A stretch of 64,000 nt of DNA from Gnetum montanum (taxonomy: Eukaryota; Plantae; Gnetophyta): assembly GCA_015680685.1 (NCBI GenBank), contig MNCI01002616.1:192378-256377 (forward strand), read 5' to 3'. The notes beneath the pieces are model-generated. The model was given only the letters and a program-made list of their open reading frames with translations. It did not search any database and was not told the DNA's origin. Shown piece by piece: positions 17,077-57,773 of the stretch (the first letter of the stretch is position 1; each line of letters starts with the position of its first letter). Made by a program: the position numbers and the translations under genes.

Positions 17077-18784
17077 TGTAGCGACCGAAAACATCAACAG
17101 CTGGAAGAACGCCAAGGTCGACAAACACAACAGTTCCAACCCCATGCTCGCGGGAGAGCAGTGTTGGATGTGTGCGAACACGGGGTGCCCTAAACGGTCT
17201 GGTTGATCAGACAGAGACTTACATCGACGTCGATATAGCCTTTTGCAATATAAACTGTACAAGCTGCGAGATGGTGCTTATGGGTAATTACAGTGGGAAA
17301 AAGAAAGGGACTAAAAAAATGCAACAATAATGTGAAATAGTGAATAAACATAAGTGTGAAAATGATATGAGACGATGCTTGAAGGTAAACAAAAAAGAAA
17401 TAATACAAGGAAGCCAGATAGTAAAAAAGAGATAACAAAAGATATAGTTAGGAACATGCACCACTTCAAAGCTACAAATCTATCTAGTTAGGGCAAGGAA
17501 CATTCAACTGCATGATGTGACGAAGTGCAGAAAGTTTCGAGAGTGACCAAAGTGTACCGGGAAACAGGAATAGCTGTGCACTTGGGCACAGACTTCACGT
17601 GTATACAACACGGGCAAGATCCTACCAAGGTGGTAGAATGAGACCCTGGGCTTTACGCCAACTGAGAGAAGTTCCTTTTACAGATTGCTGGCCTCTCTTT
17701 TTCTTTCCCTTATTATGAGATTGCAGGTATTTCTCTTTGTTTGTTTCAATTCAGGAGACTTCCCTTTTCTCTTTCTTTTTTTCTTCGCGAACCCTTTTTG
17801 TGCTATTTCACAGGCTATTTATAGGACTGAAGATAAGCAAAGGTGACCGTTTGAATACTTTGTTGTTGTAGACTTGCACCAACTTACTAGCGTTACTCGA
17901 GTCATTTGTGACTGTTGAGCTTGCAAGACCGTTGTGATGCGAGCAATAACTGCGATCCTACCACGTTGTGATTATGCCGCTAGCTCCTAGAGGCATGTGC
18001 CAACGGTTTGATTGAGGTGGAGTGCATTTATGTTGCATGGCCACCTGCTTGTCGCACTACGTTTTGCAACGTGGCTTGCTTATTGTGGTGTAGCACCTTG
18101 CCGCGTGTCCTGCCGTACGTCACATACTTGCTACATGATGCTACGCCATGTAGCGTAGCGTAGTGTAGCGTAGCATAGCGAATGGGACAATTTTGTTGAT
18201 TTTTAGCTTATTCTTCCATAATGCAAGTTCTGTGGACTTCGCTAATTTTTCCTTTTGAACCCCTTCTGTTCCTTTCCGCAGGATTGCTACGCCTTGCTGC
18301 GCCATGTAGCTCAGTGTAGCGTAGTAGCAAACATGGTCCACCGCTTCCTGGTGAGAAGGAACATCATTGCAGAACTTAAGATTGGACAAGGGAGGTGAGT
18401 AGTGAAGTTGTTGCTATGCTACGCCATATGTCATTGCATAGCGTAACATCTCGTTCCGCCATTGTTTTCTGAGGATTGCTACGCTACAAATCGTAGCGTA
18501 GCAGGCTTTGTGACTTAGAAAACATGCTAAACTGCTTCTCCTGTGCACCTAGGCTACTGTCCCTGATTCTGGACATTATTTTTGAGTAGGCTACTGGTTG
18601 TTCAGACTACTTTGGTGGGTGAGTGGGTTGGTACGGAAACCGTCCATGCCTAATGTAGAGAATTTACTGAACTGGCCATCCTGGACCTAGAACGTTCTTT
18701 TCCTAATGGATTTTTGTGGTGTCGTGCGGTCTACAAGAGCCTGGTGAAGCCAAGATGACCCTGCATTTTATTTTAGGTGTTTCA
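17077..18784 (-). repeat. 3' LTR of element D
   Basis: TGTAGCGACC...TGTTTCA on the plus strand; direct repeat of 33805-35513. Confidence 0.95.
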
Positions 18785-18797
18785 TTGGCCCCTCTTT
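18785..18797 (-). promoter_or_regulatory. PPT, element D
   Basis: TTGGCCCCTCTTT = AAAGAGGGGCCAA on the minus strand. Confidence 0.9.
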
Positions 18798-19784: not shown

Positions 19785-20065
19785 ACCCAGTTTAAGATCT
19801 TAGTAGACTAGGTGTTGGTTTAGGGTCCCAGCAGACCGCTGTGTCGGTTTGAGGTCCCAACGGACCGTACACACTAGTTTTACATCGTGGAGAACGTGCG
19901 ATGCCATTTTATAGTCATAGTGGACTAACAGTGCCATTTTTACATCGTGGCGGATAGTTGCTGCCAATTTACCATCGTAGCGGATGCTGTTTGGCGCTGC
20001 TAGTTTATCATCATTACGAACGCTGACCGGCATGGCTGCTAGTTTATCGTCATAGCGGACGGTGT
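19785..20065 (-). repeat. Post-pol tandem array, element D
   Basis: Minus-strand units such as CGTCCGCTATGACGATAAACTAGCA; also reads as ORF 19800-20078. Confidence 0.85.
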
Positions 20066-20084
20066 TTGGTGTTGTCATTATTCC

Positions 20085-23000
20085 TTAGATGTAGTATGGC
20101 TTGAGGTACATGTGGTTCACTAGGTTGGCAAACTCGTTGTTGTCCATGTCCGCCAATTTCAAAGCTCCATTCCCAAAGGCTTTAGCGACCATGTAAGGCC
20201 CTTCCAAGCTGGCTGAGAATTTACTCACATGCTCATGGGTGGCCTTGAGGACAAGATCTCCCTTCTGCACTTGTTGTCGATGCAGATCTGCACGATGCTT
20301 TTTCCGTTGTCTGTCTTGATAGTGCTTAATTTGTCTTAGTGTCTGCACGTGTTCCTTCTCCACTGAGTCGAGGTCGATGGCTCGCGATTCATTGTTCTGG
20401 GCTTCACTCACGACGTTGGACAGGATCATCTGGAGTGAGGGTACTTGTAACTCAAGAGGTAACATAGCTTCAGATCTGTAAAGGAGACTGTAAGGGGTCT
20501 TACTTGTCATGGTTTTGCAAGTTGTTCGATAGGCCCAGAGGACATAAAGTATTTTCTCGTGCCACCGCCTCTTGCTGTTGCTAAGCATCCACTTCAGTAA
20601 GTTGATGATGGATTTATTTGTAGCCTTCGCCTGTCCATTTGCCTACAGATAGTAAGGGGAATAAAATGATTGTTTAATGCCCAGGTTGCTACAGAAAGCC
20701 TGGGTTTCATTGTCAGTCAGTCACAATAGTCACAATAGTCATTGGTAACCCAAACCTAGTTACGATGTTATCGAGGATGAAGTGGCAGATTTGCTGGGAT
20801 GTCATTTTTCTTAGGGTAATAGCTTCCACCCACTTAGTAAAATACTCTGTGGTGGTGATAATGAAGCTATGCCCTGCGGAAGACTTAGGCATGATAGGCC
20901 CTATGAGGTCTAGTCCCCATCGTTGGAAAGGCCACGTAATTTTTGTAGGGTGTAGGTCTGTAGGCGCTATGTGTATGAGATTTTCATATCTCTGACATGT
21001 GTCACATGTCTTGACTTTCGACAGGCAGTCGCACTCCATGTAAGGCCAATAATACCCTAGGTGTCTAATTTTTGCTGCCATAGCCCTAATTGCTATGTGT
21101 CCGCTGCACAGTCCTTCATGAACCTCATTAGCTACCTTCTGTGCCTGCTCACCACCCACGCATGCCAGCAATATCCCATTGTAGGATCATTGGCATAGGG
21201 CATCATTTCCTATGAGCACGTATTGCTGGATGTGCTTGCAGATTACATCTCTATAACCCAATGTCAATTCACCTAGGAGTTCGCCATGCTGCAAATATGC
21301 TTTAATGTTATCGTACCATTCCGAGGTGTCTGCAGTGTCAACAGACACCACGTGTTCTGCTTGAGTGATAGGTTCTGCGCATTCTACGATCACAGTTGGC
21401 CAGTTTGCGAAGGAATGCGATGGGATGTTTAACGCAAGGGTAGCTAAGGCGTCTGCTATGCCATTCTTGCTGCGTGGCATGTGTTGCACATCAGTGATCG
21501 CGAATTATTTCAGTAAAACCTTTGCTAGGTAGCAGTAGGGTTGCAGATGCATAGCCTTATAGGTGTAAACTTCAGTGATTTGATTCACCACTAGTTGTGA
21601 ATATCCCCAGATCGCCAGGTGTTGTACATGCAGTGCGCGGGTCGTTGAGAGGCCTTTGAGTAGCCCCTCGTATTCCGCCACGTTGTTAGTGCATGGGAAT
21701 GCGAAGCAATAAGAGGATGGATACATTTCCCCAGAGAGGAATGTGATTACGGCAACGATGCTACCTCCTGCATGGTTGAGGCACCGTCGAAGTGTAGAAT
21801 TTCCTTGAAATGCGGTGGGATGATGGCGACATTGCTTACGTATTCGTCTAGGAACTTGGGATCGATGACTACCTGGTCATCGACTAGCGAGTCCGTAAGT
21901 TGGGTCGCTATGGCTTGGCCTTTTGTTGACGATTGGCTCACATAGTGTAGATCAAATTCTGTAGTTATGGCCTTCCATTGGGCTATCCTACTACTTTCGT
22001 ATAGGTTGTCGGTGATAGCCCGGAGTACATTGCTTTTGCAAATGATATTGGTTGTGCTGCGGAATAGGTAGTGCCTCCACCTTTTTAGTGCAAACACTAA
22101 GGCTAGGAAATTCCTTTTCACCTTGTTGTATTTTTCCTCATATGATATTAATGCATGGCTCAGGTAATACACTGGTATCTTAAAGCCATCATCTCGCTTC
22201 TGACATAGCAGTGCCGCTATGGATGCATCAGAGGTGGTGAGTTATATGAAGAAGGGCTTGTCCCTCTGCGGCAGGTACACTATTCGTAGGTGTGAGAGTT
22301 CTTTCTTTAGGTTGTCAAAGGCTTGTTGACATTGGATTGTCCACTTGAAGTCAACTCCTTTTCTCAGAAGGTGTTGCATGGGGTGTAACTTATCTGTCAG
22401 TCTTGCTATAAACCTTCAAATGAATTGCACTCTACCTTGTAGACCATGTAACTCTTTTAGGTTTGTGAGAGGTGCTAGGTTGATGATAGCCTTGGCTTTT
22501 TTTGGGTCCACCCATATTCTAGCCTCCGATACTACAAATCCTAACATGCGTCTGGTCTTTACTCTGAAGATGCATTTCTTAGGATTAAGATGCAAATCGT
22601 GCCTTTGAAAACACTTGAGAACTAATTCTATGTTGCGCAGGTGATGGGCCACCTCTTTAGACTTAACTGCTATATCGTCCACGTAATCATTAATCGTTTC
22701 TAGGATGTGGTTACTAAAAATGTATGTCATGGCTCGCTGGTATGTCGCCCTAGCATTCTTGAGCCCAAAGGGCATCATGGCATAGCAGAAGGTTCCCCAT
22801 GGAGTCATGAAGGTTATTGACAACTGGTGTTCCAGGTTGATGCAGATTTGGTTTTATCCAAAGAAGCCATCCATGAAGGATAGCAAAGCATGCCTAGTCG
22901 TGGTGTCGATGAGTTGATCGATGCTCAGTAGTGGAAAGTTATCCTTGATCGTTGCCTTGTTCAAATCTCGGAAATCTATACACATTCGTAGCCCTCCTAT

Positions 23001-23558
23001 TTTCTTTGAAACCACAATGATGTTGGACACCCATTCTGAATAGTCAACTGCACGGATGAAGCCTACTTGGTACAACTTAGTGATTTTGCCCTTCACGGCT
23101 AGCACAATTTCTGGCTTAATTTTACAAGCCTTTTGCTTGACTGCATTTACGTGGAGGTCTAGGATGATATTATGTTGAATCAACCATGGATCAAGACCTA
23201 GCATATCTTCATATGACCATGCGAAGACATCAATGTGTTCTTGCAAGGCTTTAACTATGCCCTCATGTATTTTTGCATCTAGGAGAGAGCTAAGTCTTAA
23301 TGTCTTTACCTCCCTTCTTGTAGTGGTTATGGGTATCTCGATGAGAGGATCCTCAGTTACATCCCCGGCCTCCAAATCTAGGATGTGGACCAAGTGTTTG
23401 GGCAAATCTGGGGATGCTTCTAAGGTTGCTATAGCATTAATCACGATCGACTCCCAATTAATCGCGTCGGGGTTTAATTGTCTTGCGAGCTTTCCTTGTG
23501 GCCCTATTAGTATTAGAGGTGCGGACAAGGCATGGTGGGTTTCCATTTCTTGCTTAAC
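20085..23558 (-). pseudogene. pol: pol (RT-RH-aRH-INT) of element D
   Basis: RMCIDFRDLNKA, MPFGLKNA, YVDD; LHFDGAS, TNNVAEYEGL, NGIADALA (aRH); HEGLCSGH/CDTCQ, WGLDLIGP, EGPY; several stops and frameshifts. Confidence 0.95.
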
Positions 23559-24272
23559 CTGCCATCACAAGATGAGAGCCTGGGTAAGGATAACGAGAGA
23601 TTGTGCAGAACATAAATCTGCAAAGCAACATCGAGATGCGACTTGCTAAATAAGGCGATGTAAAGATTAAGAGTTTGCTTGCTCGGGGGCGTGGCGTACC
23701 ACCCAAGTGCAGGGATCTAAGATAGTTGAAGAAATAGACATTGTTGATGTAAAGTGCAAAGTTGTATATGGATGCCGACCTACTAGTTGCCATTTTTGGG
23801 TTACCTTATTGTGACATGCAAAGCTTCACTGCACTAAAGAATGATAAAAGAGATGGAATTGTGAGTGCGAGACGTATCGTGCGGTCAATGTAGGAACAAA
23901 GGCATGAAATTGTTAGGGAATATTCTACTCTTATGTCGAGGCATGCCAGGTGATTGCTGATGTAAGAAGCGTAATTACTTCGTTTGACGTCATTGCGGAC
24001 TACGGCCATTACTAGTTGAAATTGTTGTCTTTGAGCCTTAAGGAATATAATGATGCTAGGTTGGTTAGCTTAAGGTCTTTTCTGACCTTTAATCGAAAAC
24101 AAATGTTATCATATTATTTTTATTTTTGAGAAGGTGAGTAACTGACTTGAAGCGTGCCAAGGTTTAAATGCTAATAGTGTCGTCATGTCGTGGTGAGCAT
24201 GCTACGTCGCACGCCGTGCCCTACCTTAATCGGAGAGAGAGAAAGGAAGTTTTTCCCATTTTGCTATTACTA

Positions 24273-24285
24273 CCATAAATAGGGG
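24273..24285 (+). promoter_or_regulatory. TATA-like box of the antisense gene in D
   Basis: CCATAAATAGGGG ~160 bp upstream of the ATG of MAPK; conserved at 53190-53201 in F with the same upstream GGAGAGAGAG. Confidence 0.6.
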
Positions 24286-24432
24286 TTGAATCCTAGTAAT
24301 TTCACTATTTTTACCCTAGAAGCACAGAATCCTGGTCAGAGCACTTCGGCGATTTTGGGTTGCGGAGTCACTATGTGAATCCACATCGAGGCAAATTTCT
24401 AAGGCGAAGGTGGTGAATCTGCTAGCAGGGCT

Positions 24433-27400
24433 ATGGCTCCTAAGACTCAGTTGGTGCTTGCGAAGGTCGGGGAGGTGAAGAAGACCTTGAGACATGGGCC
24501 ACGGGTGCGTGTTCCAGTGAGGGAGGGCACGCTATTGACCCAGTGAGTTTTTATGTCTCTTCCATTCCTTTCTCCTTGCATCTTCTTCCCTCTTTTGCTC
24601 TGGTTTTATGTCTCATTTGTTTTTCCACTGGTATTTTCTGCAGCTACGTCATTTTAGTTTTGGTGCTGTCACAGTCTTGCTTTCTTTCGGTCATTGCTAT
24701 TGTGCAAGGGTCTCGTTGCGGTTGCATGCAAGGCTATTACTACCGCAGTTGTTTCCGCGGCTACGAGGCCAAGGTCCTTTAAACTACTGAACCATGAAAC
24801 CTTCAGGAGGGGGGTTTAGTTACATATGACATAAGTGTGTATTCCGTTTGGGCCTACTATTAGTTATCTTATTGCTATGCCAAGTTATTCGCATGTTCTT
24901 GTTATGATAGGCTTTTGCATCTTTGTTATGCTATGATGAACCAGGGACCATGCTATGCTACACTTATGGTCGGCTAGGTGTTGTTATGTTGCGCACGTAT
25001 TATGTTCATATTTGATGTCACTATCTACTATTTCCGTTATGTAGAGTAGGGCCAAGGTCTAAATTGATCGTTTTGGATTTGGAAGGAGTCTTGTGTTATG
25101 TGGGCAAACCTATGACCAACATTCCCCCTCCCCCAATACGTTTGGGAGATCAAGCAGTTTGGTTTATGGATGGGGCACGAGACTTCTTGCAATTCCTCCT
25201 CAGCCATTTTAGTCTCATGGTATGGTCCTCCTCGAATGAGACACGAGCGTCTGACATAATATAGGCTTTGCTGCTAGGGGCAAATCGAGGCATCTTGAGA
25301 TATCATTCTGACGACGTGACTTCAAGCAGGCTAGGAGTAGGGTCTACCCAACACTCCATAGGGTTGAGGTGCTTGGCCTAGATTTGGGACATGCCAAAGT
25401 ACCAATGTTATCATCCTTACAACACATTGTACCTCACGCGCCATATGGTGACATACTTTCTAAACCCACAGGGGACTGTTTACTGTGTTGGCGGGTGAGT
25501 TTCATGTCTTTATTTTGCTGGGCGACATTGACTATGCTCGGTCGAGCATTAATAACATGAACTTGTCACCAGGTTCTATCTTAATGACGACGGGGTTCAT
25601 GATCAACCGGATGAATTGGCCACAGCACAACTAGCCCTGCAAAAATTTGCCTCGGCCAGGAGCCTACAGGCGGGCGTGATTGCTCTTTGCGGGGAAGGAT
25701 ACCATTCCCACCTATGCACACTCACCTCTTTCTATAGTACTTTCAAGACAAAGGGTTGGCTAGACAAGGAGTGGAGAGAACCTTTTAAGAAAGTTACACT
25801 CGACATAGTCTTAGCAGCGGAACTCCCCTATTCCCTTCATCGTATAGGTCTGGTGGGTTAACAAGTGGGTGTCATTGTTTTTTAAGATATGCTTTATGAT
25901 TATTGTCGCAGGAGCAAAGAAGCCCCGTGAAGTGATGGTGGTGACTACTAGAGGGTAAAGGGGAAACATCTACTTCAAATACGGTGAGGTATCGGCAAGC
26001 CAGAGCTGGTTGGAACGAGGGGCTCCGGGCCCCTTGCTTAGAAGAATCCAGATGGCTAGGCTTATGAATTTGTTTATGGCACCGAATCTAGGCATTATTG
26101 CTGCCGAGATGATTTCCCTGGTCAATTCCTTTTCTGGGCAGGCAAGTCGCTTTTGCACATACATGCAAGCTGTGTGGATGGTCATTGATATCAATGACTA
26201 GCTATTTGCATATTTTTTTGGCATTCCTAATTATGGCACCGATGTGATGTTGAAGGGAAAGTAGGAGTTGACCCTCCTTAAGCAGCATATTGAGGAGTGG
26301 CTGAGGCTCACCAAGGAGTGGAAAGGGTTCCCTATGGAAAAGCTTAAGGACAGTCCTGCCATGGGGATATACCTGGTCTTTCGTGCTTGTGCATTCCCTC
26401 AACTGCTCACCCAAGGAAAAGTCTTGGGGCTTGAGCAGGCTTGGGTAATGCGGGAAGTTGTGGAGGAGGGGGCCCATTATAATTGGGCCAAATTCCTCTG
26501 TAGTGTCTTGCAGGGGGAGATTTTTGGGCTCCGTGAGCAAACAAAGTCCCATTCTAACATACACTACGCCTTTTACATTGGCTATTTAAAGCACTTTGCA
26601 AAATTCCTGGTGGTCCAAGAGGATGGGGTCTAGTCTGAGCTAGACCATGATCAGATTCCTAAGCTGTGGATTCGACAAGTCTTTCGGATCATGCAAGCCC
26701 AGGCTCCCCCAAAGATGGTAGGGGATTTGTTTTCTGTAATGACTAAGGATCTGACAGTTCATAGCGCTTATGGACAAGACAGCGTAGGGGAGACTCCCCC
26801 TACCATACTTGGCAATGCGACCTAGGCTGATTGTCTTATGGCTGAGGCCATTCCTGCAGAGTTTCTGAGAAAGAGACCACCCCCTGCTAGGGAAAGCCCT
26901 CATGAAGAGGATCGACAACTGCGGTTCAAGTTGTGGCGAACGCAACCCCCCATTGGTGATCATTTAGAATGCCAACTATTCCATGCTTAGCTAAGTTATG
27001 CATTGTGGCATGATATTAGTTTTGAATTAATCAACTTTGCTTTATTGTGTGTATACCCTTTGCAGATAGCAGAAGAAGAAGGCAAAGAAGAAGGTGATGA
27101 GGAAGTGTCGGCCCTCAGACCGGGGGTGACAAATAAAGACACGAGGGGCCCAACTTTGGAAGAGAGGGCCCCGGCTAGGAATACTGGAGCTCTTGTCTCC
27201 GGGGTAGGGGCTCTTGTCACTAGAGAGCCTCTTCCTACCAACAAAGAGGTGTCTTCTCGAAATAAGGAGGACACTTCCCTCTTGAAAGAAAAAGCACCAG
27301 CACTTGAGGTAAGAGTTCCCACGAACTTGGCTAGGCCTTCTACAAAACCTACCGTGATTGTCTTGCACCAGCATAAATCAAGACAACAGCCGAATGCAGA

Positions 27401-28743
27401 TGAGTTTAGGCTTCGGATGTACTCTATGGTAATCCACTTCAGCTATTGTTGTCATACTAAATTGTGTAACGAGTGCTACTGCTAATGTATTAGGACCTTC
27501 TCTGCCCTAGACATAGTCGTGGACTGAAATTCCTGACAAGTTTATGTTTGTTCAGGGGTTAGTTGATGACATGATCAAACACCTTCAACAGGAGGATCCT
27601 CGTGTGGGTGAGTAGGAGTGTTGACAGCTCCTATGCTTCTATGCTACAACTCTTGGACATATTGATTTATATTTTGTTAACGTGATTGCTATACTTTCTA
27701 AGCCTCTCGGCTCAAATGGGACCTAGCTCGACCTATGGAAATTGGCGTGGTGCCCACACTCTCATCCGACATGACTGAAGTGTCTCGTTGTGTATTTGAC
27801 AAGGCTTACAAATGCATCTTGCACTCGATGTGCTCCCTATGGGAATGTAGACATACCAACAAGGAATTGTGGAAGCAGGCCCATAGAAGCAAGAAAAGAG
27901 AGACAGAACTAGCTACCGAGGTGGGGAACCTCAAGTCAGGGATCGATTTCCTCTTAAACCGTAGTCCTAACCCTGTGGAGCTGTAAAGGGCTATGGCCGA
28001 TCACACCAGATTTTGGATTGTTGTCCATCAAAATGTAGAATCCACTCATGAAATAGTCGAATAACAGATGAAGATGGATTTGCTAGCCCAGAAGTGCCAA
28101 GACATGAAGGACATCAGTGCCAAGATCTTCGAATGGGGGAAGGCCCAGAGAGACCACAAGTATACATACAAGCAAGAAAATGAAACCCATCGAAGGCTGT
28201 ATAAAGATGCTATTGTGGAGGCATTCTCGTACAAGGCGTTTGTGAAGGCCATCGGCACTTCTGAGGCTTATGCCAAATTTAAAGAGTGGGTGGAGGTCAC
28301 GAAGTCTCCAGATTTGGGGGTTACCCTTCCTACAGGGGAGACCGCCATCACCTCCCTTTCCCTAGGGTCTCTAAAATGGACAACTTTGGAAAAGGAGAAG
28401 GTTGCCACTACGAATGCTAAACCTAATGATAGGCCTTGGATGAATATTTCAATGGAGGAGATTAAGCATCGTCTCAGGCTTGGTCTAGACCAGATACCTC
28501 TTGCGACGAACGCAGGCTCCCCTCAAGTTAGTCACTTTGATGCTTTGCTACAACTGTCCTTTATCGCATTTGTTGTCCCCACTAACTACTTTATCTTCTG
28601 GGGCGTAGGCTCTTAACGAGGATGTGAGGCCTATGGAGGGAAGGAACGAGGTGTCGACGGGGGACAATATGGAAGCTGACGATGTACAAGTGGATGAGGT
28701 AGAGACAAACGGTGAAGGCAATGTGAACAGGGATCGCTTGTGA
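24433..28743 (+). pseudogene. Antisense ~8-exon accessory gene of D: NIF/FCP1-like HAD domain, PMD/Transposase_32-like domain, acidic linker, coiled coil (~1,100 aa predicted)
   Basis: Predicted exons 24433-24542, 25045-25494, 25573-~25850, 25912-26955, 27066-27399, 27494-27607, 27703-28526, 28609-28743. The first two junctions were checked and are in frame. Splice positions are shared with the F copy. Confidence 0.8.
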
Positions 28744-28894
28744 GAGCATGAGGGTGGGCCCCCCCTCTCTCTCTCTCTTTTTGGAAGAATTTACAGACAC
28801 TGCCGATAGGCGAAAAAATTTGACTGAAATGCATTACTTCAGAAAGGAAAATGATCTCGTATTTTCATGCATGTTATGTAAAGTTTTCGTACTC

Positions 28895-29095
28895 TCGTAT
28901 GCCAGTTTTGGGCCATTTTGGGTCTTTTACGTAGTTTTAGGCCATTTCAGGCTATTGTATAGTGAATAAATTGAAAGGTGATAATGCTAGTTTTAGGCCA
29001 TTTCAGGCCGTTTGTTGGTTTCAGGCCATTTCGGGCTATTACGTAGTGAATAAAGTGAAAGGTGATAATGTTAGTTTTAGGCCATTTTGGGCTGT
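28895..29095 (-). repeat. GGCC-N6-GGCC-TAAAACTAGCA array downstream of protease in D
   Basis: Plus-strand GCTAGTTTTAGGCCATTTCAGGC-like units, ~5 copies. Confidence 0.75.
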
Positions 29096-29240
29096 TTGCA
29101 TATTATGCCAAAAAAATGACACTCTGGCGGGCTAAGTAGAGAGCGAATATGTGAGGATGGAAACTGGGTGAGAGGTCACAAAGTTGCTATGCTACACGTA
29201 GTTGTCTCCTGACCTTTCATGGGTTGAAAGGGACGTAAGG

Positions 29241-32200
29241 TCAAGGAATTTCACTAGGGCCTTCGCTCGTGCTACCGTCCTCTGCTTGAAAGGGCATCTC
29301 CACCCAAACGTTTTCTACCTGAGGGTCGCTTTGTTGGGCCGATCCCTTCACTGTACAATTAGTGCATGCATGAACAGGCACTTCATCTTCAGAGGTTGTA
29401 ACCTCTGAACCTTGCTCTGTGTTTAGATTACTAATTTCTTGCGTTACCACCCCGTCGCCATGGATTATCACCTCTCTACCCTCGTATGGTAAATGGATTT
29501 CCTGGTGTATATGCGAGGAGACTATCCTAAGTTGTGCTAACCATGATCTCCCCAAGATTAGGTTAAACTCGGGCATTTCTTCGACTACAAAAATGTTGTG
29601 TCTGTGGGGAGCTCATTCCATGCTATGAAGTTTACATGAACTGTGCCTTTTACTAGGACACATGCCCCGTTGAAGGACTGTAGGCACGGCATCACTGTTG
29701 GTTTGATCTGGTCGACCAATCCTAGTTTCTCTATGATAGGCAAAGAGATGACATTTGTGGCTGCCCCATCATCAACATGCACCCTTCGGATTTGGTACTG
29801 ACCAACCTGAATTGTGATGAAGAGTTCCGGGATCTTGCTTAATGGCTTTGTTGCTGAAAGTTAGTGGAGGTGCGGACTCCATGGGTACGAAGGGAAGTAT
29901 GACTGAGTGGATTGTATTCTCGTCTGTTGGCATGTTTTCATCGATCGAGATTGCCGTTAACATGCAGACCAAAGCCTCACGGTGAGGGGTTGATGTTATG
30001 ACTAAGTTATATAGGCTTAGCATGGTATTATTTTGCCTTAGGGCTTGCCTAGCCTGGGTGAGGGCGTTCAAGAATTCTTGGTCGCCCATCTGTTTGACCC
30101 CCTCCTCCTCGATTCGTCCTAGAAGACAAATCTCCTGAGGAGAGACTACCCCAGACCCAGGTTCAAATGTTTTGTGAGAGGATGTCACAGGTTGTGTGCT
30201 TGCATCGACCTTCGTCCTTGGTGATGAAGGTATAAATTCAAATGGTGAAGGCATAGTTTTGGAGATGCTTTTAATAGTATTCCTCTTCGATGCCTTGCCC
30301 ACCAGGTAGGTTTATCGCGTTGTAGGATGAGGGGGTCATTTAATGTTGTTGCATGGAATGGGGGCTGTCAAATACGTTGGTCTCCTAATGACGAATGGAG
30401 CTAGAGGTGTTAGTGGACGGGGTTGCACAACCCCGCCAACGGGTGGTGCAAAGGCAAATGCTCATGGTGGGACTTTCAGGATGAAGGGCGACCACGGGCT
30501 TGGGCCAGCCATTGGTGGCGTTGGAACACTACGCTGAGGCACGTGAATCAAAAATGGCTAGAAGGGTGGAGTGGGATCATTGTTAATACTGATGGCATTG
30601 ATGATGTAACTGGCATTGTTTGCATTGAGGGGGTCGGTATAGACATACATGGATTGGTTTTCAGGACATACTAGGCTACTTTCATCTAGCACCAACTGCC
30701 CTAGGTCAATCAATCTTTTGATATCGTCTTGCAAAGATAGACAATAATCTATGGTATGACCACATAGTTGATGGTAATTGTAAAACCTGTCTAGCCTAAA
30801 ACCTTTAGGAACTGGAGGTTCGTTGGGCAGGGCTAAAGAGGGATTTCTAAGGAGCTCGCAGTAGCATCAATTCCTCATGTTTGCTTCTTCTGACATCCAT
30901 TTGTGTTGAATGTATCCCACTGCCAATAGTTGCTTCAGGAGTTCTGAAGGTTTGAGGGGCAGCAGAGTATATTTTGAATGATCTTTATGTTTGAGGTTAG
31001 GTTTAGTGTATGCAGATGTCCTGGGTGTGGGCGCGGCAGGTTGTAACGCTTGGCCAGGCCTAGGCCCTGTGTCGGCTGTAGGTACGGTTTGTTTCTTGTT
31101 ATTCTTGTTTCCGTTGTTGCCATGTTTGGGCTTAGCCTTAGCTTCCACAGTAGCCACCATGGTCTTTGTGGCTTTACCCTTGTCCTTCTTTGCAAAACTA
31201 TTCCTGTAAGTGATATAAGGCAGGTCTTTACTTACCTCGGCAACATCTTGTATGCTTTTCATCTAAGCAAAATCTTGACTAAGTGAGCATGGAGCAAGGT
31301 AATATAGTTTTGACTTAATGAAGTCATTCACTACACTCTTAAAGATGGCTAACAAATGAGCCTCTGCGATAGGTTCACGGATTTTGTTAAGGGTTGCGCT
31401 CCATCGTTGAATGAATTTTTGGACTAGTTCTAGTGGGTCTTACTTCATGCTCATCAGCTGATCCAACATGTTTTCTGGCTTCAAGTTATACTTGAAGCGT
31501 GTCACAAACTGGGTCAAGAGTTCTTCCAAAGCCAAAATGGATGAACGTGGCAATGCGTGATACCAATCTAGGGCTTTCCCGGCTAGGGACATGGCGAAGA
31601 CGCGAATGATCATATGCGGCCATTGTTGTAGTAACAAAGATTCTGACCGGAAAGTGATAAGATGTGTATTGGGATCTCCTTCCCCATCGTACTTCATGAA
31701 GTGTGGGAGAGACATCCCCGGTGGTAATATCAAGGCAGGGATTGCAGGGTTGATGGGGTCATCTTGGTAACAATCCATGACTTGTACCATATTGGACCCA
31801 ATAGCTTTGAGGTGTTTTACTTCCTCGATTAGGGTTTGAATAAGCTGAAATGCTTGGTCCAGACCTGGGGATGTTGTAGACGGCTGAGGGATTGTAGAGG
31901 CAACCCCTGCAGGTGGCATGGTAATAGTGGCAATTTGACCCATCGGCTATGCCATTGGGGCCACCCCTACTAAAGGTGTTGTTTGCGTTGTCCACCATCT
32001 GGTGGATGGTATCACCGGAGCGGTAATAGCAGGTTGAGCTACCGGGTAGGCTGTTTGGATCATCGGTGGGACCCCCCATGGCCCCATGTCAGTTTGTGCC
32101 ATTTGGGGGGTCAAGTAGACCTAAGGGCGAGTGTAATGAGACATCTGCAATGGTTACGGAACAGACAAAGAGGTAGACAGAGGCCACCACATGGATGGGC

Positions 32201-32978: not shown

Positions 32979-33054
32979 TGTTAAGCAAGTTATTATGCGA
33001 AAATGCTAGAAAATGTGGAAGAACATAAGGATAAACAAAAATGAAAATGGGTGG

Positions 33055-33720: not shown

Positions 33721-33781
33721 ATGTATTAGGACACAGAAGGCTCACAGAACTATCTTGACATGTAGCAAAGGCACCAAGAGG

Positions 33782-33798: not shown

Positions 33799-33804
33799 AA
33801 AAAT

Positions 33805-35513
33805 TGTAGCAACCGAAAACATCGATGGCTGTAAGAACGCCAAGGTCGGCGGACACAATAGCTCCAACCCCGTGCCCATGGGAGAGCGGTGTTGGGTGTG
33901 TCTGAACATGGGGTGCCCTGAATAGTTTGGTCGATCAGACAGGGACTTACATCAATGTCGATATAGCCTTTTGCAATATAAACTATACAAGCTACGAGAT
34001 GGTGCTTATGGGTAATTACAACGAGAAAAAGAAAGGGACTAAAAAAATGCAACAATAATGCGAAATAGTGAATAAACGTAAATGCGATAATGATATGAGA
34101 CGATGCTTGAAGGTAAACAAAATAGAAATAATACAAGGAAGTTAGATACTAAAAAAGAGGCAACAGAAGATATAGTTAGGAACATGCACCACTTCAGAGC
34201 TACAAATCTATCTGGTCAAGGCGTGGCACAATCGGTTGCATGACGTGACAGAGTGTAGAAAGTTCCGAGAGTGACCAAAGTGTACTGGGAAATAGGAATA
34301 GCTGTGCACTTGGGCACAAACTTCACATGTATACAACATAGGTGTGATCCTACCAAGGTGGTAGAATGAGACCCTAGACTTTACGCTAGCCAATAGAAGT
34401 TCCTTTTACAGATTGTTGGCCTCTCCTTTTCTTTCCCCTATTGTGAGATTGCAAGTATTTCTCTTTGTTTGTTTCAGTTTAGGAGACTTCCCTTTTCTCT
34501 TTCTTTTTTTTTCGTAGACCCTTTTTGTGCTATTTGATAGGCTATTTATAGGGCTGAAGGTAAGCAAAGATGACTGTTTGAATACTTTGTTGTTGTAGAC
34601 TTGTGCCAACTTACTAGCGTTACTCGAGTCATTTGTGACTGTTGAGCTTGCAAGACCGTTGTGATGCAAGCAATAACTACGATCCTACCACATTGTGACT
34701 GCACCACCAGCTCCTAGAGACATGTGTCAATGGTCCAATTGAGGTGGAGTGCATTGATGTCGCACGGCCACCTGCCTGTCGCGCTGTGTTTTGCAATGTG
34801 GCTTGCTTATCGTGGCATAGCACCTTGCCACGTGTCTTGCCGTACATCACATACTTGCTACATGATGCTACACTACGTAGTGTAGTGTAGCATAGCATAG
34901 CATAGCGACTGGGACAGTTTTGCTAATTTTCAGCTTATTCTGCCATAATGCAAGTTCTGTGGACTTCGCTAATTTTTCCTTTCGAACCGCCTTCTGTTCC
35001 TTTCTGCAGGATTGCTACACCTTGCTGCGCCATGTAGCTCAGCATAGCGTAGCAACAGACATGGTCCACTACTTCCTAGTGAGAAGGGACATGACTGCAG
35101 AACTCGAGATTGGATGAGGGAGGTGAGTAGTGAAGTTGTTGCTATGCTACACCATATGTCATCGCGTAGCGTAACATCTCATTTCTCCATTGTTTTCTAA
35201 GGCTTGCTATGCTACACATCATAGCGTAGCAGGCTTTGTGAATTAGAAAACTTGCTGAACTACTTCTCCTATGCACCTAGGCTACTGTCGCTGATTCTGG
35301 ACATCATTTCTGAGCAGGCTGCCGGCTATTCAGACTACTTTGGCGGGCGAGTGGGTTGGTACGGAACCCGTCCATGCCTAAAGTAGAGAATTTACGAAAC
35401 CGGCCATCCTGGACCCAGAACATTCTTTTCCCAATGGACTACTATGGTGCCATATGGTCTACAAGAGCCTGGTGAAGCCAAGATGACCCCGCATTTTCTT
35501 TTAGGATGTTTCA
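33805..35513 (-). repeat. 5' LTR of element D
   Basis: Direct repeat of 17077-18784; TATA on the minus strand at 34543-34550. Confidence 0.95.
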
Positions 35514-41000: not shown

Positions 41001-41289
41001 TTTTTTCAACATAGCCAACATAGCCATTCTCCACATAATTATTTTCAACATTTAACCTTAAAACCTTAAAGCAACAAAGCCATAAACAACATATATAGCC
41101 AAAACTCAAGCTGAAAATTAAAAAATTTTAAAGTGATATAGCCATGGACACACTATGTGGCATAAATATTAAGACAATAAACCAAAAATGTTAAAATGTC
41201 TAGAACTCAAGTATTGGCCAATATGGGTCATACAACATCCAAACATAAACTAAAAGAAAACATCAACAATGACTATCACATCAAGCATT

Positions 41290-44200
41290 AGGTGGTGCCA
41301 AGGGGACATCCAGAGGGGGAGGAGATGGTGCATCATCATCATTGCCTACACCATTGGAACCTCCAATATCATATGGTGCCTATGACATAACAACACCAAC
41401 CAATCAGTAACTAGCATAACTAAAACCATGACATAAAATCAGGTAAGACAAAAATTTAAAATATAAAACATAAATGTCATTAAACCTATGGGAAATCTAG
41501 CTCTACAAACTCTTTAGCAAGAAAGTGAAGGTTAGTCTCCAAATTTTTGAGAAACTAGTCTTCTATCATGTTTTCCTAGTTAATGTTTTAAAAATTAATG
41601 TCCATGTAGATGTTGGTCCTATCTACATGTATCCATGATGGAGGCTCCCATGAGACTATAGCTATAGACACCTCATCCATAGTTGTAGTAATATATGGGG
41701 TAGGATAATTAACTACTATTAGAGTTCTTTTAAAGAGGTTGAAAACACTCTCATCCTAGATGCCTTGGATAAATAGATCTCTCTTCTATTGTTTAATTAT
41801 CTTCCTCTTTATCCAGTTTAGGTATCCCTCTCAATCAACCTTATACTTATGCTTGTGATTCTTTTGTTTCTTACCCCACTCTAGGATCCAAGCACTATAA
41901 TCCTTCCAATCATGGGTCTTTTAGAAGATCAAGTCCATCAATATCTACTTCTCATGAAACTCCTTAGAGAGGGAAACCTTGTCATGGATAGCATGCTAGT
42001 AGTAGGCCCACGTGATCTCCTTACTCTTAAAGATCCCTAAGTTATTCACTTGTGCTTTTGCAAAGGCCCTATGATCCTTTAGATCTTGGATCTTCTTGGC
42101 TTACTTTTTATTATCCTTCTTCAAGGCCATAACCTATTTCTATAGAGATTCATTGGACATCTAAATCTCCTATGAAGCTTTTGTGCATGACACTACTAGA
42201 TCAATGGTAGGTTCATACAACTTCAAGGGAACATGTGGGATGTTAGGAGGAAGGTTAGGTAAAGAGTCAAACTCCATGTCTTTGGATAGGTTCCACATAA
42301 CTAATGGCACTAAAAACAACAAAAATATAACCATAAACATGATGTACAACCTAAGGTAGCCATAGCATAAAAATATAACTCATAGCAATATAACTAAGGC
42401 ATAGAAAAACATAGTTCTTACCAATCTCCGGTGTAACCTATTGTAACTAACAAATGATTTCCTTTGCCATCTTGTGCATGAATTCCATCTTGTTTGAGAC
42501 CTCTACCCATGGTTTCATCTGAAATGTGGATGTAGAGGCCTCTACTAGTGGCTCAAGAACTACAATAAGCATAACAATTGTTAGTTAAGTAAGAAACTAC
42601 GATGTTAAAAATAAAACCATAGACAACAAAGAGTAGATAATAGGTATACCTATGTTCTTGTTCTTATTCTCATTCTCATACTCATTATCATTACAAATAT
42701 CAATTGAAGGCTTCCTAGGTAGTGACTCACCGAATAAGGTGTCAAGATCATCCATATCTTGTTGCAAGAGTGCCTCCTCTACATGCCTTTTTTCCTCCTC
42801 TACCTTAGTGGCTATGCAACTCTGCTCCTCCTCCTCAACATGTGTGTGTGCCTCCTCCACTTTCCTATGTTCTTCTTTTGCAATGGCAACTTGGGCTGCC
42901 AAGTTCCATCACTTATCTATAGCCGTAACCCATTAGACAAGTTAGCACATATAGCCATAGGACATAACTAGTCTAAAACATACTTAAAATGTACTTCTGA
43001 TTACCTGATATATGGGTGGGATCTTGAAGATAATCCATTGCTTGGAGGATGGCTCTTTTACTAGTGGTGCTTTCACTGCTAGCCATTTCAAATTAGTCTT
43101 GGTAGCCTAGTTTTCCTTTACACATAACCATTGGATCCCCTTGATGTTTTTTGGAACATAAGAGGTGCCTCCCCCATGCTATCAAGGGATTCACACCAAT
43201 TAACACCAAGGTTCTTGATGGTCATAGATAAAAAATTATCCATGTCCTTTGGTGGGTTCTGAGCCTACATTGTTCAATAAAGATGTTTTATTCAAGTCTA
43301 GAAGAGTTGTTTTGGGTCCTAGAACATCCATGATCAATTCCTCTTCACCACCAAGAATTTTTTGAACCTCTTTGGATAGCCTAAAAAAATGCATAGTGCA
43401 TGTGGACTATCATAGAAGTGTCCATGCAAAGTTTGAGGATTTTCTCTTTGAGGCCCATAGCTAAGGAAGTAGCCTAGTTGAAATGAGTCTCCTATGTCAA
43501 AACCTTCTTAAGGGTCCATCCTTATGTAATGCTAACTACCTTCTTTTACAATAACAATTTAGGGAAAGGCTAAGATCTAAAAAAATAATAGGACCACTTT
43601 GCTATCAAGGACAAGTCTGGAGTAACCTTTCTAGCACCAAACCACTCCTCAAATTTTACACAATGGCCAACCTCCTTCATTGGTTTGGTAGCAACTACTA
43701 TCCCATCAGCAGGATCATCAAATAAGTAGCAAAAGGTGGACACACTAATGGCAATGGTAATTGGCATGCTTCACACTATGATGTGGAACACATCAACTTC
43801 TGCATCAAAGGTGTCGATGAAGTTCTCCATCTTTGTAGAAGGAATGATAGGGCTAGGAACCATGAATACCTCAAGAAAACCTATACACACGATGTTTTCT
43901 TGAATGTTCTTAGGCACCTGCCTCCTCAACCACTCCTGCACTAGTCCCACCTCACTGAACGTTAGGATGAAAGTTTTCACAATACATCTGATAAGGGATA
44001 TGGTGACATCAATAGAAGTGGAAGGCCCTGTAAGTAAAAGACAAGTGGTTAGCATCAGTATAGCCTTATTTAGACTATAGAACACTTAAGACCCAAGTAG
44101 CCATAAAACCTTAGTTATAATATAGAAGGCCATTTCTTTTCTTACGTTTCTTCTTCTTGTTTAGAGAAGCTTGTGCATGGCTCTCAATAGTGATATCAAT

Positions 44201-44990
44201 ATCTCTAATGGACTTGGGAGGCACCCACCAACTATGTACTATTTTGGTAGCCACACACTTCTTGTAAACATGGTTAAATGTTAAATCTGGTGAGGTTTCC
44301 TCTTAGCTATTCAAAAATAGCATGTCTAATCTTGGGTCCTTTCATGAATTCACTCAACGTAGTGTGGGTTACTACCAATGTTTGATCATTCATAATCCAA
44401 ACTTGCTCATTAACCTTGTACTTGTAAGATGTATCTAAAATCAACAAGTTAGGAATTAGGACCAAATTAAATAAAGCCAAAACATTTAAACATATAGTAG
44501 CCATGCTTACCCCTATAATCAACACATGGTGCCTCAAGGATTCTAGAATAAGGAGTGGGCTCTTTGTGCCACCATTAAAGTATTATTCATGTTGTATCAT
44601 AAATACTCTAGCATCATCCAAATGTTTGAGAGGTACCGTGCACTAATGTTATTTGCTGGCTCTCCTACCACTCGAGTCTATGGATCATCGATTATGAACT
44701 AAGTAATCATATGTGTAGACCTAGGTAGTAGGGTCTTCACTATGATCGCAACCACCTCCTTAGACAAATGTGACCACATCATCACACTAAAATTCTAAAG
44801 AATATAGGCAAGAAAATACATTGCCCTTGGGCAGAATGATAGTGACCCCTTTTCTAGGTCCATGTTAAGAAGGGGGGTGTGGGTCATGGGTTGTTTGATA
44901 CAACATAAAATGCTAACCAGCTTGATCATGATGAGGACTAGGTTTAGTAGGACCTTGCAGTGGGAAGACATCAATACTATTAGAACCACA
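41290..44990 (-). pseudogene. Divergent antisense accessory gene of element E (NIF-like, PMD-like, coiled coil)
   Basis: LIMIKLVSILCCIKQPM...FLAYIL.NFSVMMWS and NIWMMLEY.YNMNNTLMV...NP match D exon 2; VQEWLRR...FMVPSP matches D exon 4. The 5' end was not resolved. Confidence 0.7.
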
Positions 44991-53351: not shown

Positions 53352-56300
53352 ATGGCTCCAAAGAAGGAACGTACCCACTTGGCACTTGCAAAGGTTGAGG
53401 AGGTGAAGAAAACCCTAGGGTGCATGACATAAGCATGCATTGAAGCACAGGAGGACATGCCATTGACTTGGTAGGCCACTATGCTTTCTCTACTTCTTTG
53501 TTATTCTATTATCATTTTTTGTATTTGTTTTCTTCTTTGTATCCTAGTCTTAGTCATCTATGTTTTTTGTCATCATGTTGTTTTGGCCTTTAGATCGCCG
53601 CTGCCATTTTGGCCATGGTAGATGCCTAAGCGCTATGCTATCTTTGCATGTAAGGTTGCTTAAATTGCCACCACCACAGTTGTCATAACCGTGGGGGTTT
53701 AGAAATTTTAAGTTACTTGGCTTTTGAATGACATAGTGTAGGATCCTTATGAGGGTTGGGCCATGCATAATGTGATAGTGAGACATGTGTTCTATCGGGG
53801 CATATCATTAATTTCCCTGTTAGGGTTAATTTCTTTGTTGCTACGCTAGGCTATTTTCGTTGCACTATTGCTTTCATGTTCTTGCTACGCTATGTGTGGG
53901 AAGAGGGTTATGCCATGCTATATGCATGAAATGCTAGGTATTGCTATGTTGCGTGTGCATTGCATTTAGACATGATGCTGATACTTGCTGGTTGTGTTGC
54001 GCAAGATGGGGCTAAGGCCAATTTTGATTATCTTAGAAATTGTAGGGGTCCTGTGTTATGTAGGAAAACCTATGGCTGATGTTCCTCCTCCCCGTATACG
54101 TGTAGGAGAGTGGGGTGTCTGCTTCAAGAAAGAAGCACAGGAATTCCTACATTACCTCCTCCGACACTTCAGTGTGATCATTTGGTCATACCTAGAAGAG
54201 GAAGAGGCGACTGTCATAACATAAGCCATATTCCCTAGGGCAAGTCGAGGCATCCTGAGGTTTTTGACGAATGGGGCAATCATTAGCAGGCAGGGAGAAG
54301 GATCTAGTTAATACCCCACAAGGTTAAGGCGTTTAACCTAGATCTACGATATGCCTGAGTATGGTTACTACCATTCTTATAACACACTATTCGTTGCACA
54401 TTATATGGAAATGTGCTTCCAAAACCCACCAGAAACTATCTACTGTGTTGGTAGGTGAGTTTTTTGTAGTCTTGTTCCACTGTGTTGTGCGACGCTTACC
54501 ATATTGGCTAGATGCTAATGGTATTTTTTTGTTACTAGGTTCTACATTAACAAGGAAGGGCTTCATGACCAACTGGGTCTGCTAACTATAGCATAGATGG
54601 CCTTGCAAGAGTTCTCTTCTGCTAAGAACCTGTAGGTGGTGTGATTGGTCAATGCGAGGGTGAATACCACACCTACCCAGAACTATACCCCATTCCCTAT
54701 GATCAATGCAAGGGGTCTAGTTGGCTGGATGATGGGTGGGTGCAAGCTTTCAAACCAATCACTATTGACCAAGTTCTAGTTAGTCTTCTGTCGTTCCCGT
54801 TACCGTATAGGCCCAGTAGGCCAAATAGTAAGTGTTGCATGCTTAAGTGTCTTTGCAATCCTTGGATTTTCTATGTTTCTATGCTAAACGTTTTTCGTGA
54901 AAACTATTATAGGGACAAAAATGCCCCAGGAGATGATAGTGGTGATCGTCGAGACACAGAAGGCAAACATCTACTTCAATTATGGAGAAGTAGATGTGAG
55001 CCAATGCTAGATAAACGGTATGGCTTCTGACTCCTTGGTCCAGAATATCCAAAAGGCTAGGCTCATAGATCTATTCTTAGCTCCAAATTCAAGCATTCCT
55101 ATAGCTGAGATGCTCTCCCTGATCAGCTCCTTTTCTGACAAGGCCGACGGCTTTCACATGTGCATACGGGGCATGCGGGTGGTCCTTGAAATCAATGACT
55201 AGCTATTCATGGACCTCTTTGGTGTCCCCGTCCATGGCATTCTCATAGGGTCAAAGTCCAAGAGGGAGCTGACCTTTTAGAAGAAGGACATTCAGGAGTG
55301 GTTAGGGATTGCCAAGGAGCAAAAGGGGCTCCCCATGGAGAAGCTTAAAGAAGGACCCACCAGGGAGGTTTACCCTATCTTCCATGCTTGCACATTCCCC
55401 CAACTTCTTTCCCAAGGGAAGGTCCTAGGGATTGAGCAGGCCTGAGGTCATGGAGGAGGGGGCCCATTACAACTGGGTCATGTTTTTATGTAAAGGCTTG
55501 CAAACTGAAATCTTGGAGCTCCATAAGAAACTAGAGTCCCATTCCAATATACATTATGCCTTTTACATAGCCTATCTGAAGTGTTTTGCATAGTTTCTAG
55601 TGGTTCACAAGAATGGAGCCTGGGTCATGCAAAATCATGGCCAAATTTCTAGACCATGGATTCGCTAGATCCTCTAGACCACTCGAGCCCAAGATTCCGC
55701 AGAGATAATTAGGGAGTCTTTCTCTCTGATGACTAAGGATCGGGTGGCCCGCAACTTTCACGGCCAAGATAGCATAGGAGAGATGCCCCCTACTGTAGTT
55801 GGTAGTGTGTCATGGGGGGAACGTCTCATAGCCAAGACTATGGCCAGTAAGTTGTAGCAGAAGAGTCCTTCTCCAGCTAAAGAAACCCTTCGCATGGAGG
55901 AAGAGGAGGGGCAGAGACTGCAGCTTAAACTATAGAGGATGCAACCCCCCATTGGTAAATGCTTTTGTTTAATGCCCATTTTGTTATTGCCTACTATGCT
56001 AGGCATCATAGCGTAGCATAGCACCTGCTTTAAGCTAACTTATTTTGGACTAATGAAAACATGTCTCTTGACTGGCAAAGGAGGAAGAAGAAGAAGAAGA
56101 AAGCAATGAAGAGGTGTCAGCCCCTAAGATAGGGGTGACGAATAAAGACTCGAAGGCCCCAGTCTTAGAGAGAAGGGTCTCGGTCAAGAAGGGAAGAACT
56201 CCTATCGCTAAGGCAGGGGCTCTTGTTATCAGGAAAAATCCTCCTACTGACAAGGAGAGAATTTTTAAAGATGAAGAAGTGTCTCCCTTGAATAAAAAGG

Positions 56301-57773
56301 ATGCTATTCTCTCAAAAGGAAAGGCACCAATGCATGAAGAAGAGACCCGTACAGACTTGGCAGGGACTTCTACCAAGGCTTCCACCATTGTTTTGCATAA
56401 GTAAGAGGGAAGACCACAATTGGATGCTGGTGAGTTCAGCAACATGTCTACCTTGTCATACCCATTCTGGCCATTGCTAATATGTTTAATTATTTGATAG
56501 GCATCATTGTTGATACTGCAGGACCCCCTCTGACTTGTGCGGAATCATGGTCCAAGATCCTTGATAAGTTTATGTTCATGTAGGGAATCGTTGATGACAT
56601 GATTAGCTGCCTTCAGTAGGTGGACCCTGACGTGGGTAAGTAGTAGTGTTAGGTGCTCTCATGTTCCTATACTAGAATTTCTTGGTCTTGCTAATCTTGC
56701 TATGCTAACGTGACTACTATGCTCTTTGTGTCATGGCAGCCTCTCGGCTCAAATGGGACCTAGCACAACCTTTGAAAGTTGTTGCCATGCCTACAGTCTT
56801 ACTTGAACTGACCAAGGTGTCTCGTTGTGCATACAACGAGATCTGCAAATGCTCTTTGCACTTGGCATGCTCCTTGTGGGAGTATAAGCACATCAATGAG
56901 GACCTATGTAAATGGCTCCAAAAAGCTGAGCAAGAGAAGGCCGACCTGAGCACTGAGGTGGAGGATCTCAAGTCAAGGAATGAATTCCTTATAGCCCGTG
57001 ACACTAATAATGAGGACTGGTGCATGACTGTGATAGATTATGCTAGATTTTGGAGAGTCACACATTAAAGCATCGAAGCCACCCATGAAATAATAGAACA
57101 ATAGATGCAAATGGACTTGTTGGACTAGAAGTGTCAGGATTTGAAAGATTTCAATGCCAAGGTTTACGAATGGGGGCAGTCCCAGAAAAACCATAAACAT
57201 ATGTATAAACTGGAACATGCCACTACTCGTAAACTGTACAAGGACGTTTTTGTGAAGGTGTTTACGTATAAATCATTCATAAATTCCATTGACACTTCTG
57301 AGGCCTATGCCAAGTTTAAAGAGTAGGTAAAGGTTACAGAATCTCATGATTGGAAAGTGGACCTTCCCACAAGAGAAACCACAACCACCTCCTTTTCTCT
57401 AGGACCATTGAGGTGGACAACCACCGAGAGGGAGAGAGCTACTACAGACGTTGAACCAGGCAACAAGCGTTGGGTGGACATCACGGTAGAGGAGGTCTAG
57501 CACGGCCTTGGGCTTAGTTTAGACTGGATACCCTTCAAAGCCCTTCTTAGGTTAGTTGCTTTCTACTATATTAATGCTTATGCTCTATTGTAGCTTGCGT
57601 GTGTTGCTTTAGCTGACCACTTCATTCCTACGTTGTAGGCTCCAGATGAGGACGTAGGGCTCATAGAGGGAAGGACTGAAGGATTAGTGGAATACAATGC
57701 CAAGGAAGGTGATGCAAAAGGAAATGATGCAGAAATGAATGGTGAAGATGATGCAAACAAGGAGAACCCATGA
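53352..57773 (+). pseudogene. Antisense ~8-exon accessory gene of element F
   Basis: MAPKK start, phase-2 first intron as in D; LIILEIVGVLCYV...EFLHYLLRHFSVIIWS; YHSYNTLFV...QNPPET; HYNWVMFL; last exon the same length as in D (132 nt + TGA). Confidence 0.8.

Follow-up and report, generated by a model that had tools for sequence, protein, structure and literature searches.

A degenerate NIF-type phosphatase domain, probably inactive, in an antisense gene of Tat-clade retrotransposons from Gnetum montanum

Why would a retrotransposon carry a phosphatase-like domain with degenerate catalytic residues? The question is raised by a 64,000-nucleotide stretch of Gnetum montanum DNA (contig MNCI01002616.1), which is called the window here at its full length. 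A sequence-only reading had placed an exon with a NIF-like scaffold at 25045..25494. We found the quoted peptide at 25046-25495 on the + strand, and the coordinates do match an exon, bounded by AG at 25043-44 and GT at 25495-96. The accessory gene to which it belongs, as the second of eight exons, runs antisense to a Ty3/gypsy element, named D below. On balance, we consider the exon 2 domain likely to be a dead NIF-type, phosphate-recognising N-terminal binding module of an element protein.

The host element and its antisense gene

The window holds a set of old Ty3/gypsy elements (LTR K2P 0.13-0.16) that are related and nested in one another. Element D is complete, and its domains follow the order gag, protease (PR), long spacer, reverse transcriptase (RT), RNase H (RH), additional RNase H (aRH), and integrase (INT; Table 1). 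The additional RNase H, by which the Tat clade is recognised, is seen as an RT_RNaseH match followed by RVT_3 in D, and RVT_3 reaches E 2e-15 in the related element F. Two features used to recognise Ogre/Retand, the position of aRH between RH and INT and a 5-bp target duplication, are also found in D; the duplication reads TTAGA/GTAGA, with four of five bases matching. The aspartyl-protease Pfam matches, in F and in element X, are weak (E 0.07-0.17). D, F, and X each have a PBS-like motif, which we take to resemble tRNA-Asn; in Ogre the type is mostly tRNA-Arg, and in Retand Lys, Arg, or Asn. The LTR pair of D gives a K2P of 0.131 over 1,707 sites, with 173 transitions and 26 transversions (199 differences). 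The transitions are concentrated at CG (67/173) and CHG (49/173), contexts that account for 122 and 120 of the 756 C+G in one LTR. This concentration suggests CG and CHG methylation in the host plant.

Table 1. Positions in the window of element D, of its antisense gene, and of the gene copies in elements F and E
Feature	Position	Strand	Remarks
Element D	17077-35513	-	old, complete Tat-clade Ty3/gypsy element
5' LTR of D	33805..35513	-	TG...CA ends
PBS-like motif of D	33798-33782	-	next to 5' LTR
gag of D	30867..31946	-	Retrotrans_gag E 0.0024, below cut-off
Protease region of D	29442..29794	-	61-73% identical to that of F
Candidate intron of element strand	23559..29213	-	5,655 nt, phase 0, GT-AG, PR to RT
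pol of D	20085..23558	-	RT to about 22338; RH 22241-21747; additional RNase H 21876-21505; integrase 21186-20085
3' LTR of D	17077..18784	-	LTRs 1.7 kb
Antisense gene of D	24433-28743	+	eight exons
Exon 1	24433..24542	+	ATG, short basic peptide; donor GTGAGT
Exon 2	25045..25494	+	NIF/FCP-SCP-type HAD domain; 2 internal stops
Exon 3	25573..25868	+	exon bounds in joined gene model
Exon 4	25912..26955	+	347 codons; domain without Pfam match
Exon 5	27073..27399	+	charged low-complexity linker
Exon 6	27494..27607	+	exon bounds from gene model
Exon 7	27703..28526	+	274 codons, charged; possible short coiled coil (crude heptad count only)
Exon 8	28609..28743	+	acidic tail, then stop
Antisense gene, copy F	53353..57773	+	between RT of F (from 52568 down) and PR of F (58683-59036)
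NIF exon, copy F	about 54005-54454	+	within antisense gene of F
Antisense gene, copy E	41280..44957	-	downstream of + strand PR of element E (39855-40205)
NIF exon, copy E	about 44954-44511	-	within antisense gene of element E

The spacer between PR and RT has intron-like borders on the element strand. Its RT-side acceptor, pyrimidine-rich and ending in AG, is present in D, F, and A. The PR-side donor is GT in D and X and AT in F and E, that is, in two of the four elements. The whole antisense gene is likely nested in a gag-pol intron, judging by these signals; for Ogre, an intron between gag-PR and pol is reported (PMC4408406). The sequence-only reading gave this placement too little weight.

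The eight exons of the antisense gene join in phase in D. They give 3,300 nt (1,100 codons), free of frameshifts but with 12 internal stops. GT-AG borders are found in six of the seven introns; the exception is intron 5, whose donor is AT in D but GT in F. At 43 nt, intron 3 of D is about half as long as that of F (about 80 nt). The splice signals lie at matching places in F and E. A TATA-like CCATAAATAGGG is found about 160 nt 5' of exon 1 in D and is common to D and F; a prokaryotic promoter scan, irrelevant to plant DNA, gave chance levels only. Exons 3-8 have no Pfam match of note. For a piece of exon 4, the Atlas leads (below 0.9) were plant hypothetical clusters, Transposase_32 (12% of members), and DUF1985 (13%).

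No RNA run was listed as containing the stretch itself. RNA reads cover the gene thinly, with 101, 67, 79, and 31 in four runs. No read is 99% alike to D, so the reads come from other copies. None of the 278 aligned RNA reads is spliced within the antisense gene, and the ends of the PR-RT junction lie outside the aligned stretch. In one RNA run (X9) most first mates are on the - strand, which fits transcription in the direction of the gene, and in another (X10) they are mixed; the counts are low in both.

The antisense gene occupies the same PR-RT position in all three elements in which the spacer is present (D, F, and E). Its exon 2 is carried by Tat-clade Ty3/gypsy elements, as had been proposed when the exon was described as borne by a transposable element. 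The peptide matches that of D at 54006-54452 (+) in F and at 44935-44525 (-) in E. A tblastx comparison with the gene of D matches exons 2-8 in F and exons 2, 4, and 7 in E; exon 1 of copy E was not found. F and D are 61-73% identical in PR and 48% in the NIF exon; for F and E, the values are 46% and 32%. The two regions rank alike in divergence, as expected if they were inherited together. Between D and E, the NIF domain is only 30% identical. Element E is interrupted by F, which is inserted at 46044. Where exon 1 and the promoter of E would be expected, at 44960-46043, the sequence is AT-rich (29% GC) and has no match within the window.

NIF homology and catalytic state of exon 2

Pfam NIF (PF03031) matches the exon of D with 23.0 bits against a curated cut-off of 21.8 (E 7e-5) and is the sole family listed. 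NIF ranks first for F (E 0.0098) and for element E (E 0.055) as well, with both scores below the cut-off. A metagenome scan gave 92 pattern matches, of which one was confirmed. This is L001 (positions 122-772), an intact NIF protein (Pfam NIF E 1e-19) with DLNGT as motif I and with the DD and the motif III Lys kept. When L001 was compared with 858 six-frame chunks of the window, only the D, F, and E copies matched (E 1e-4 to 2e-3), and the next best chunk had E 1.2. Aligned to intact L001 with hhalign, the profile of the three copies reached 96.7% (E 4e-10). The same profile matched only UBLCP1 (3shq) in the PDB, with E 0.016; with L001 added, UBLCP1 reached E 2.5e-5 over profile positions 35-144. 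SCP and Fcp1 chains were absent from these PDB profile searches up to E 10. Exon 2 is almost certainly homologous to NIF/FCP-SCP-type domains, as the sequence-only reading had supposed, and the nearest relatives that sequence comparison points to are UBLCP1 and the DLNG-type protein L001. Between motif I and the N-P that follows motif IV, both are colinear with exon 2. The start of exon 3 may carry the last helix of the domain; its alignment to L001 is weak, with 11% identity.

The Atlas neighbours of L001 are mostly fungal, and the automatic Atlas names are TIM50. We rejected L001 as an element-borne copy and regard it as a fungal-type cellular NIF gene. DLNG-type NIF genes also exist as a plant subfamily, for which a literature look-up via Arabidopsis and S. 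pombe identifiers found no paper. A match to Trm5a (E 0.03, profile with L001) covers 50 residues of another fold and was rejected as chance. The PDB search with a single copy returned two matches, both irrelevant. Word-index protein searches with the NIF exon (10 and 6,041 candidates), which are weak given the divergence and the stops, returned none at E 0.01. Among viral contigs, there was no relative of the NIF exon or of the RT.

The structure models, for which the sequence-only reading had suggested a comparison with SCP1/FCP1/UBLCP1, add little. Model 1 (pLDDT 40.8) had no Foldseek match. Model 2 (pLDDT 50.5), which is not independent of the sequence search since L001 was in its alignment, gave SCP2, SCP1, CTDNEP1, SCP3, Fcp1, and Tim50 among the top rows, none of them better than E 1e-3. 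SCP1 and FCP1 belong to the same Pfam family as exon 2 and stand in those top rows. However, exon 2 is without DxDxT and DD, and its sequence profile gives no match to them.

In HAD phosphatases, the DD of motif IV and the second Asp of motif I serve Mg2+ binding and turnover. In exon 2, motif I is DLEGV (D), EIVGV (F), or KLVSI (E), none of which follows DxDx(T/V); the first Asp is present only in D and is Glu in F. The Ser of motif II is kept in all three copies, in a W-S context, and aligns with that of L001 and UBLCP1. The motif III Lys is replaced by Arg in all three (codons AGG, AGG, and CGG). The DD of motif IV has become TR in D, AH in F, and AQ in E. UBLCP1 and L001 both keep DD and the motif III Lys, and UBLCP1 keeps DxDxT, whereas exon 2 has neither motif. 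From these residues, the domain is very probably catalytically dead. The earlier statement that the catalytic residues are degenerate in all copies stands for DD and needs qualification for motif I, where D retains the first Asp. As L001 already has DLNGT and not DxDxT, part of the "degeneration" of motif I may come from the donor, and the DLEG of D may differ little from what the donor had.

The loss of DD is not accounted for by transition decay after insertion. All six DD-site codons are one to three substitutions away from an Asp codon, each requiring at least one transversion, and decay in D consists mostly of transitions (173 of the 199 LTR differences). We also looked at DNA runs. In four of them, 1,938, 2,116, 1,965, and 1,460 contigs, at least 80% like D, align on exon 2. 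The exon belongs to a high-copy family, with about 1,500-2,100 matching contigs per run. Majority differences from D were called at a 45% threshold, below which minority copies do not show. Among the 40 of 55 rows listed, one such difference falls in the DD codons (25436) and does not give Asp, and none falls in the motif I codons for D, E, G, and V or in the motif III Arg codon. Five loose-end cells cover the DD site among the 24 of 672 listed, and none has an Asp codon at either position.

Selection and possible function

Between D and F, exon 2 is under purifying selection, like gag. Its dN/dS is 0.196 in frame, compared with 0.80 and 0.84 in the shifted frames and 0.38 in the mirror frame, values that are rough because dS is near saturation (1.6). 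The differences fall 42/39/76 on the three codon positions, and pN/pS is 0.39 (bootstrap 0.30-0.49). Four other blocks of the antisense gene have dN/dS of 0.15-0.24, and dS exceeds 1.3 in the five blocks. The main gag-PR block has 0.21 and the smaller ones 0.23-0.82. Of seven pol blocks, four lie at 0.11-0.21 and one is saturated; the remaining two, at 0.84 and 0.93 with 45-50% identity, are probably off-frame. Since the loss of DD predates the D-F split and dN/dS covers the change since then, the fold would have been under selection after DD was lost. The idea of a conserved inactive fold is borne out in this respect.

If active copies of the family encoded a working or atypical phosphatase, the motif loss seen here would be the decay of old copies. 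D indeed keeps the first Asp in DLEG, close to the DLNG of L001, and the copies are old by their LTRs and, in D, by the 12 internal stops. However, DD is absent from three of three copies through changes that include transversions, and the five listed loose-end cells that cover the site in the four DNA runs show no Asp codon there. We give this explanation hardly any credence. Scarcely more probable is that the gene is a passenger: a host gene, or a gene of some other element such as a DNA transposon, that was inserted once and hitchhiked without serving the retrotransposon. Seven introns and the antisense orientation fit an insertion at the DNA level, and the Atlas leads for exon 4 lean toward plant transposon-type families. 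Against a passenger speak the constraint, which equals that of gag over a dS above 1.3 in five blocks, the shared position in all three spacer-bearing elements, and the co-divergence with PR. Nor is there an inverted-repeat pair around the gene common to D and F. The passenger scenario may describe the origin of the gene but not its retention.

Under the reading that we prefer, that of a dead binding module, the antisense gene would have a promoter of its own and be transcribed in the opposite direction to the element, and its seven introns would survive reverse transcription for this reason. On the element strand, the PR-RT spacer would be spliced out, joining gag-PR to RT, and the unspliced RNA would be copied, as reported for Ogre. 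Without DD and the second Asp of motif I, the exon 2 domain would neither bind Mg2+ nor turn over a substrate. A phosphorylated host protein could be held in a basic pocket made up of the kept Ser, the Arg found in place of Lys in each of the copies, and, in D, the Arg at the second DD position. F has His and E has Gln at that last position, which means that the basic pocket rests on D and its relatives. The bound host protein would be recruited to the remaining parts of the accessory protein, which is likely nuclear and likely acts on the expression or silencing of the element itself. Phosphate-dependent binding, taken by itself, is a serious but tentative proposal from the pattern of residues.

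The dead fold could also serve a phosphate-independent contact, much as the NIF fold of Tim50 does, by acting as a scaffold, a dimer, or a partner surface. The whole domain is constrained, yet motif I and the second DD position (R, H, or Q) vary, which would suit such a role. On the other hand, all three copies retain the Ser of motif II and a basic residue in motif III though D and E have so little identity, and we consider this use of the fold rather unlikely. The sequence-only reading went further in naming a partner: the domain would read, or act as a decoy for, the phosphorylated CTD of Pol II and so shift transcription, splicing, or silencing of the element. The FCP/SCP-type proteins in the top Foldseek rows agree with this, and the element likely must balance spliced pol RNA against unspliced genomic RNA. 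However, these rows mirror the shared fold and the content of the PDB and come from a low-confidence model with a NIF protein in its alignment. UBLCP1 was matched by sequence and SCP and Fcp1 were not, and the W-S context of motif II is that of UBLCP1 and L001. Because the sequence points to UBLCP1 and the DLNG type and not to SCP/FCP1, the Pol II CTD is an improbable partner, and we do not retain this part of the proposal. A broader scheme is slightly less improbable, though still a long shot. In it, an undescribed Tat lineage would have a Rev-like regulator in its gag-pol intron, and the captured phosphatase would be a phospho-reader of a host transcription or splicing factor (the Pol II CTD among the candidates), setting the balance of spliced pol and unspliced genomic RNA or shielding the element from silencing.

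Relation to known accessory genes and elements

D resembles Ogre in the RT-RH-aRH-INT order, the 5-bp target duplication, the large size, and the spacer between gag-PR and RT (PMC4408406, PMC6317226). In Ogre, extra ORFs are reported on the sense strand 5' of gag or on the antisense strand 3' of pol, and most carry a PMD (PMC6317226). In contrast, the gene of D, F, and E lies in the PR-RT spacer, has eight exons, and contains a NIF domain; it shows no Pfam match to PMD or Transposase_28, and is not of the 5' or 3' extra-ORF type of Ogre/Retand. The REXdb survey scored extra ORFs solely 5' or 3' of the polyprotein (PMC6317226), and the position of this gene is outside its categories. Neither NIF nor HAD figures in the REXdb table of extra-ORF domains, which is based on CD-search at E 1e-10 in at least five elements (PMC6317226). 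Screens for stop-to-stop ORFs of at least 250 codons would miss most exons of the gene.

Retand and Grande also have an antisense gene that is conserved across copies. Such accessory genes (Transposase_28, GENE23) are reported to have their own promoter and a nuclear product, with no function established (PMC7264820, PMC11963269); nuclear localisation and own-promoter transcription are described for GENE23 of maize Grande (PMC7264820). PMC7264820 remarks that a clear similarity to other proteins had not been described for antisense accessory genes. The origin and function of these genes in the Tat clade is a stated open question, and one of them now has a domain of recognisable host type whose catalytic state can be read, which gives a direct biochemical handle.

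Host domains in large Gypsy elements have a precedent in Phalaenopsis, where an extra ORF encodes an AlkB demethylase that is catalytically active in vitro (PMC9289625). There, too, a host enzyme domain is fixed in the extra ORF of a large Gypsy family; the NIF domain of exon 2 differs in being without catalytic residues. If a retrotransposon keeps a pseudoenzyme, this would stand in contrast to the active capture in orchids. The orchid screen covered 121 angiosperm genomes and 15 extra domains, and NIF is not among the domains named in the available text (PMC9289625). A further comparison, by analogy only, is with modules in which a domain derived from transposable elements is paired with a phosphatase domain. 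One such phosphatase, PP7L, is inactive. The modules MAIN/MAIL1-PP7L and MAIL3 combine a PMD with a phosphatase and act on the silencing of transposable elements (PMC7156037). Theirs are host-encoded PPP-family phosphatases, not HAD, and exon 4 has no demonstrated PMD. The full texts that we searched, few of them from subscription journals, contained no NIF domain in a retrotransposon and no antisense gene in a PR-RT intron. The D/F/E gene is likely an undescribed variant of the Tat-clade accessory gene, with an unreported place and a captured, probably inactive NIF domain. The family is abundant in at least four organisms (DNA runs), so the module accompanied a large amplification.

The named RT matches are from Ginkgo, Taxus, and Trifolium, with 43-53% identity, and the best-scoring of them is Ginkgo. 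A quick tree groups the RTs of D, F, and A in a clade of their own whose stem is long (0.75, SH-aLRT 100), away from the 62 retrieved RTs, that of Trifolium among them. These 62 were taken from 120 by coverage (at least 190 residues) or source name, the REXdb reference set was not part of the tree, and the branch lengths of D, F, and A are inflated by decay. Ogre and Retand are reported from angiosperms (PMC6317226). The RH-aRH-INT order is reported only for these angiosperm elements, whereas the RTs of the window do not group with the Trifolium match. By their RTs, D, F, and A may represent a separate Tat lineage.

Other members of the nest show related rearrangements. D is inserted in the 3' LTR of X (8295-17071 and 35516-36066, + strand), a related element with gag and PR. 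In X, the PR donor region runs straight into 3'-type tandem repeats and the LTR, and both the antisense gene and pol are missing; X is possibly a non-autonomous deletion derivative. The end of its 5' LTR has a 255-nt duplication (9682-10196), resulting in two PBS-like motifs (9901 and 10156). The PR-RT spacer of A is interrupted. Just upstream of the RT acceptor of A (about 3,600) lies an LTR-like stretch (about 1270-3574) that belongs to another related element; this points to an insertion into the spacer of A. Tandem repeats of 27-105 nt occur at the ends of PR-RT spacers (28900-29098, 57941-58312, 14457-14692, and 52827-53018), and arrays of 29-30 nt in the 3' internal regions (47-410, 7110-7330, 19812-19867, and 48839-49059). 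Repeats at both places are like those reported for Tat-clade elements.
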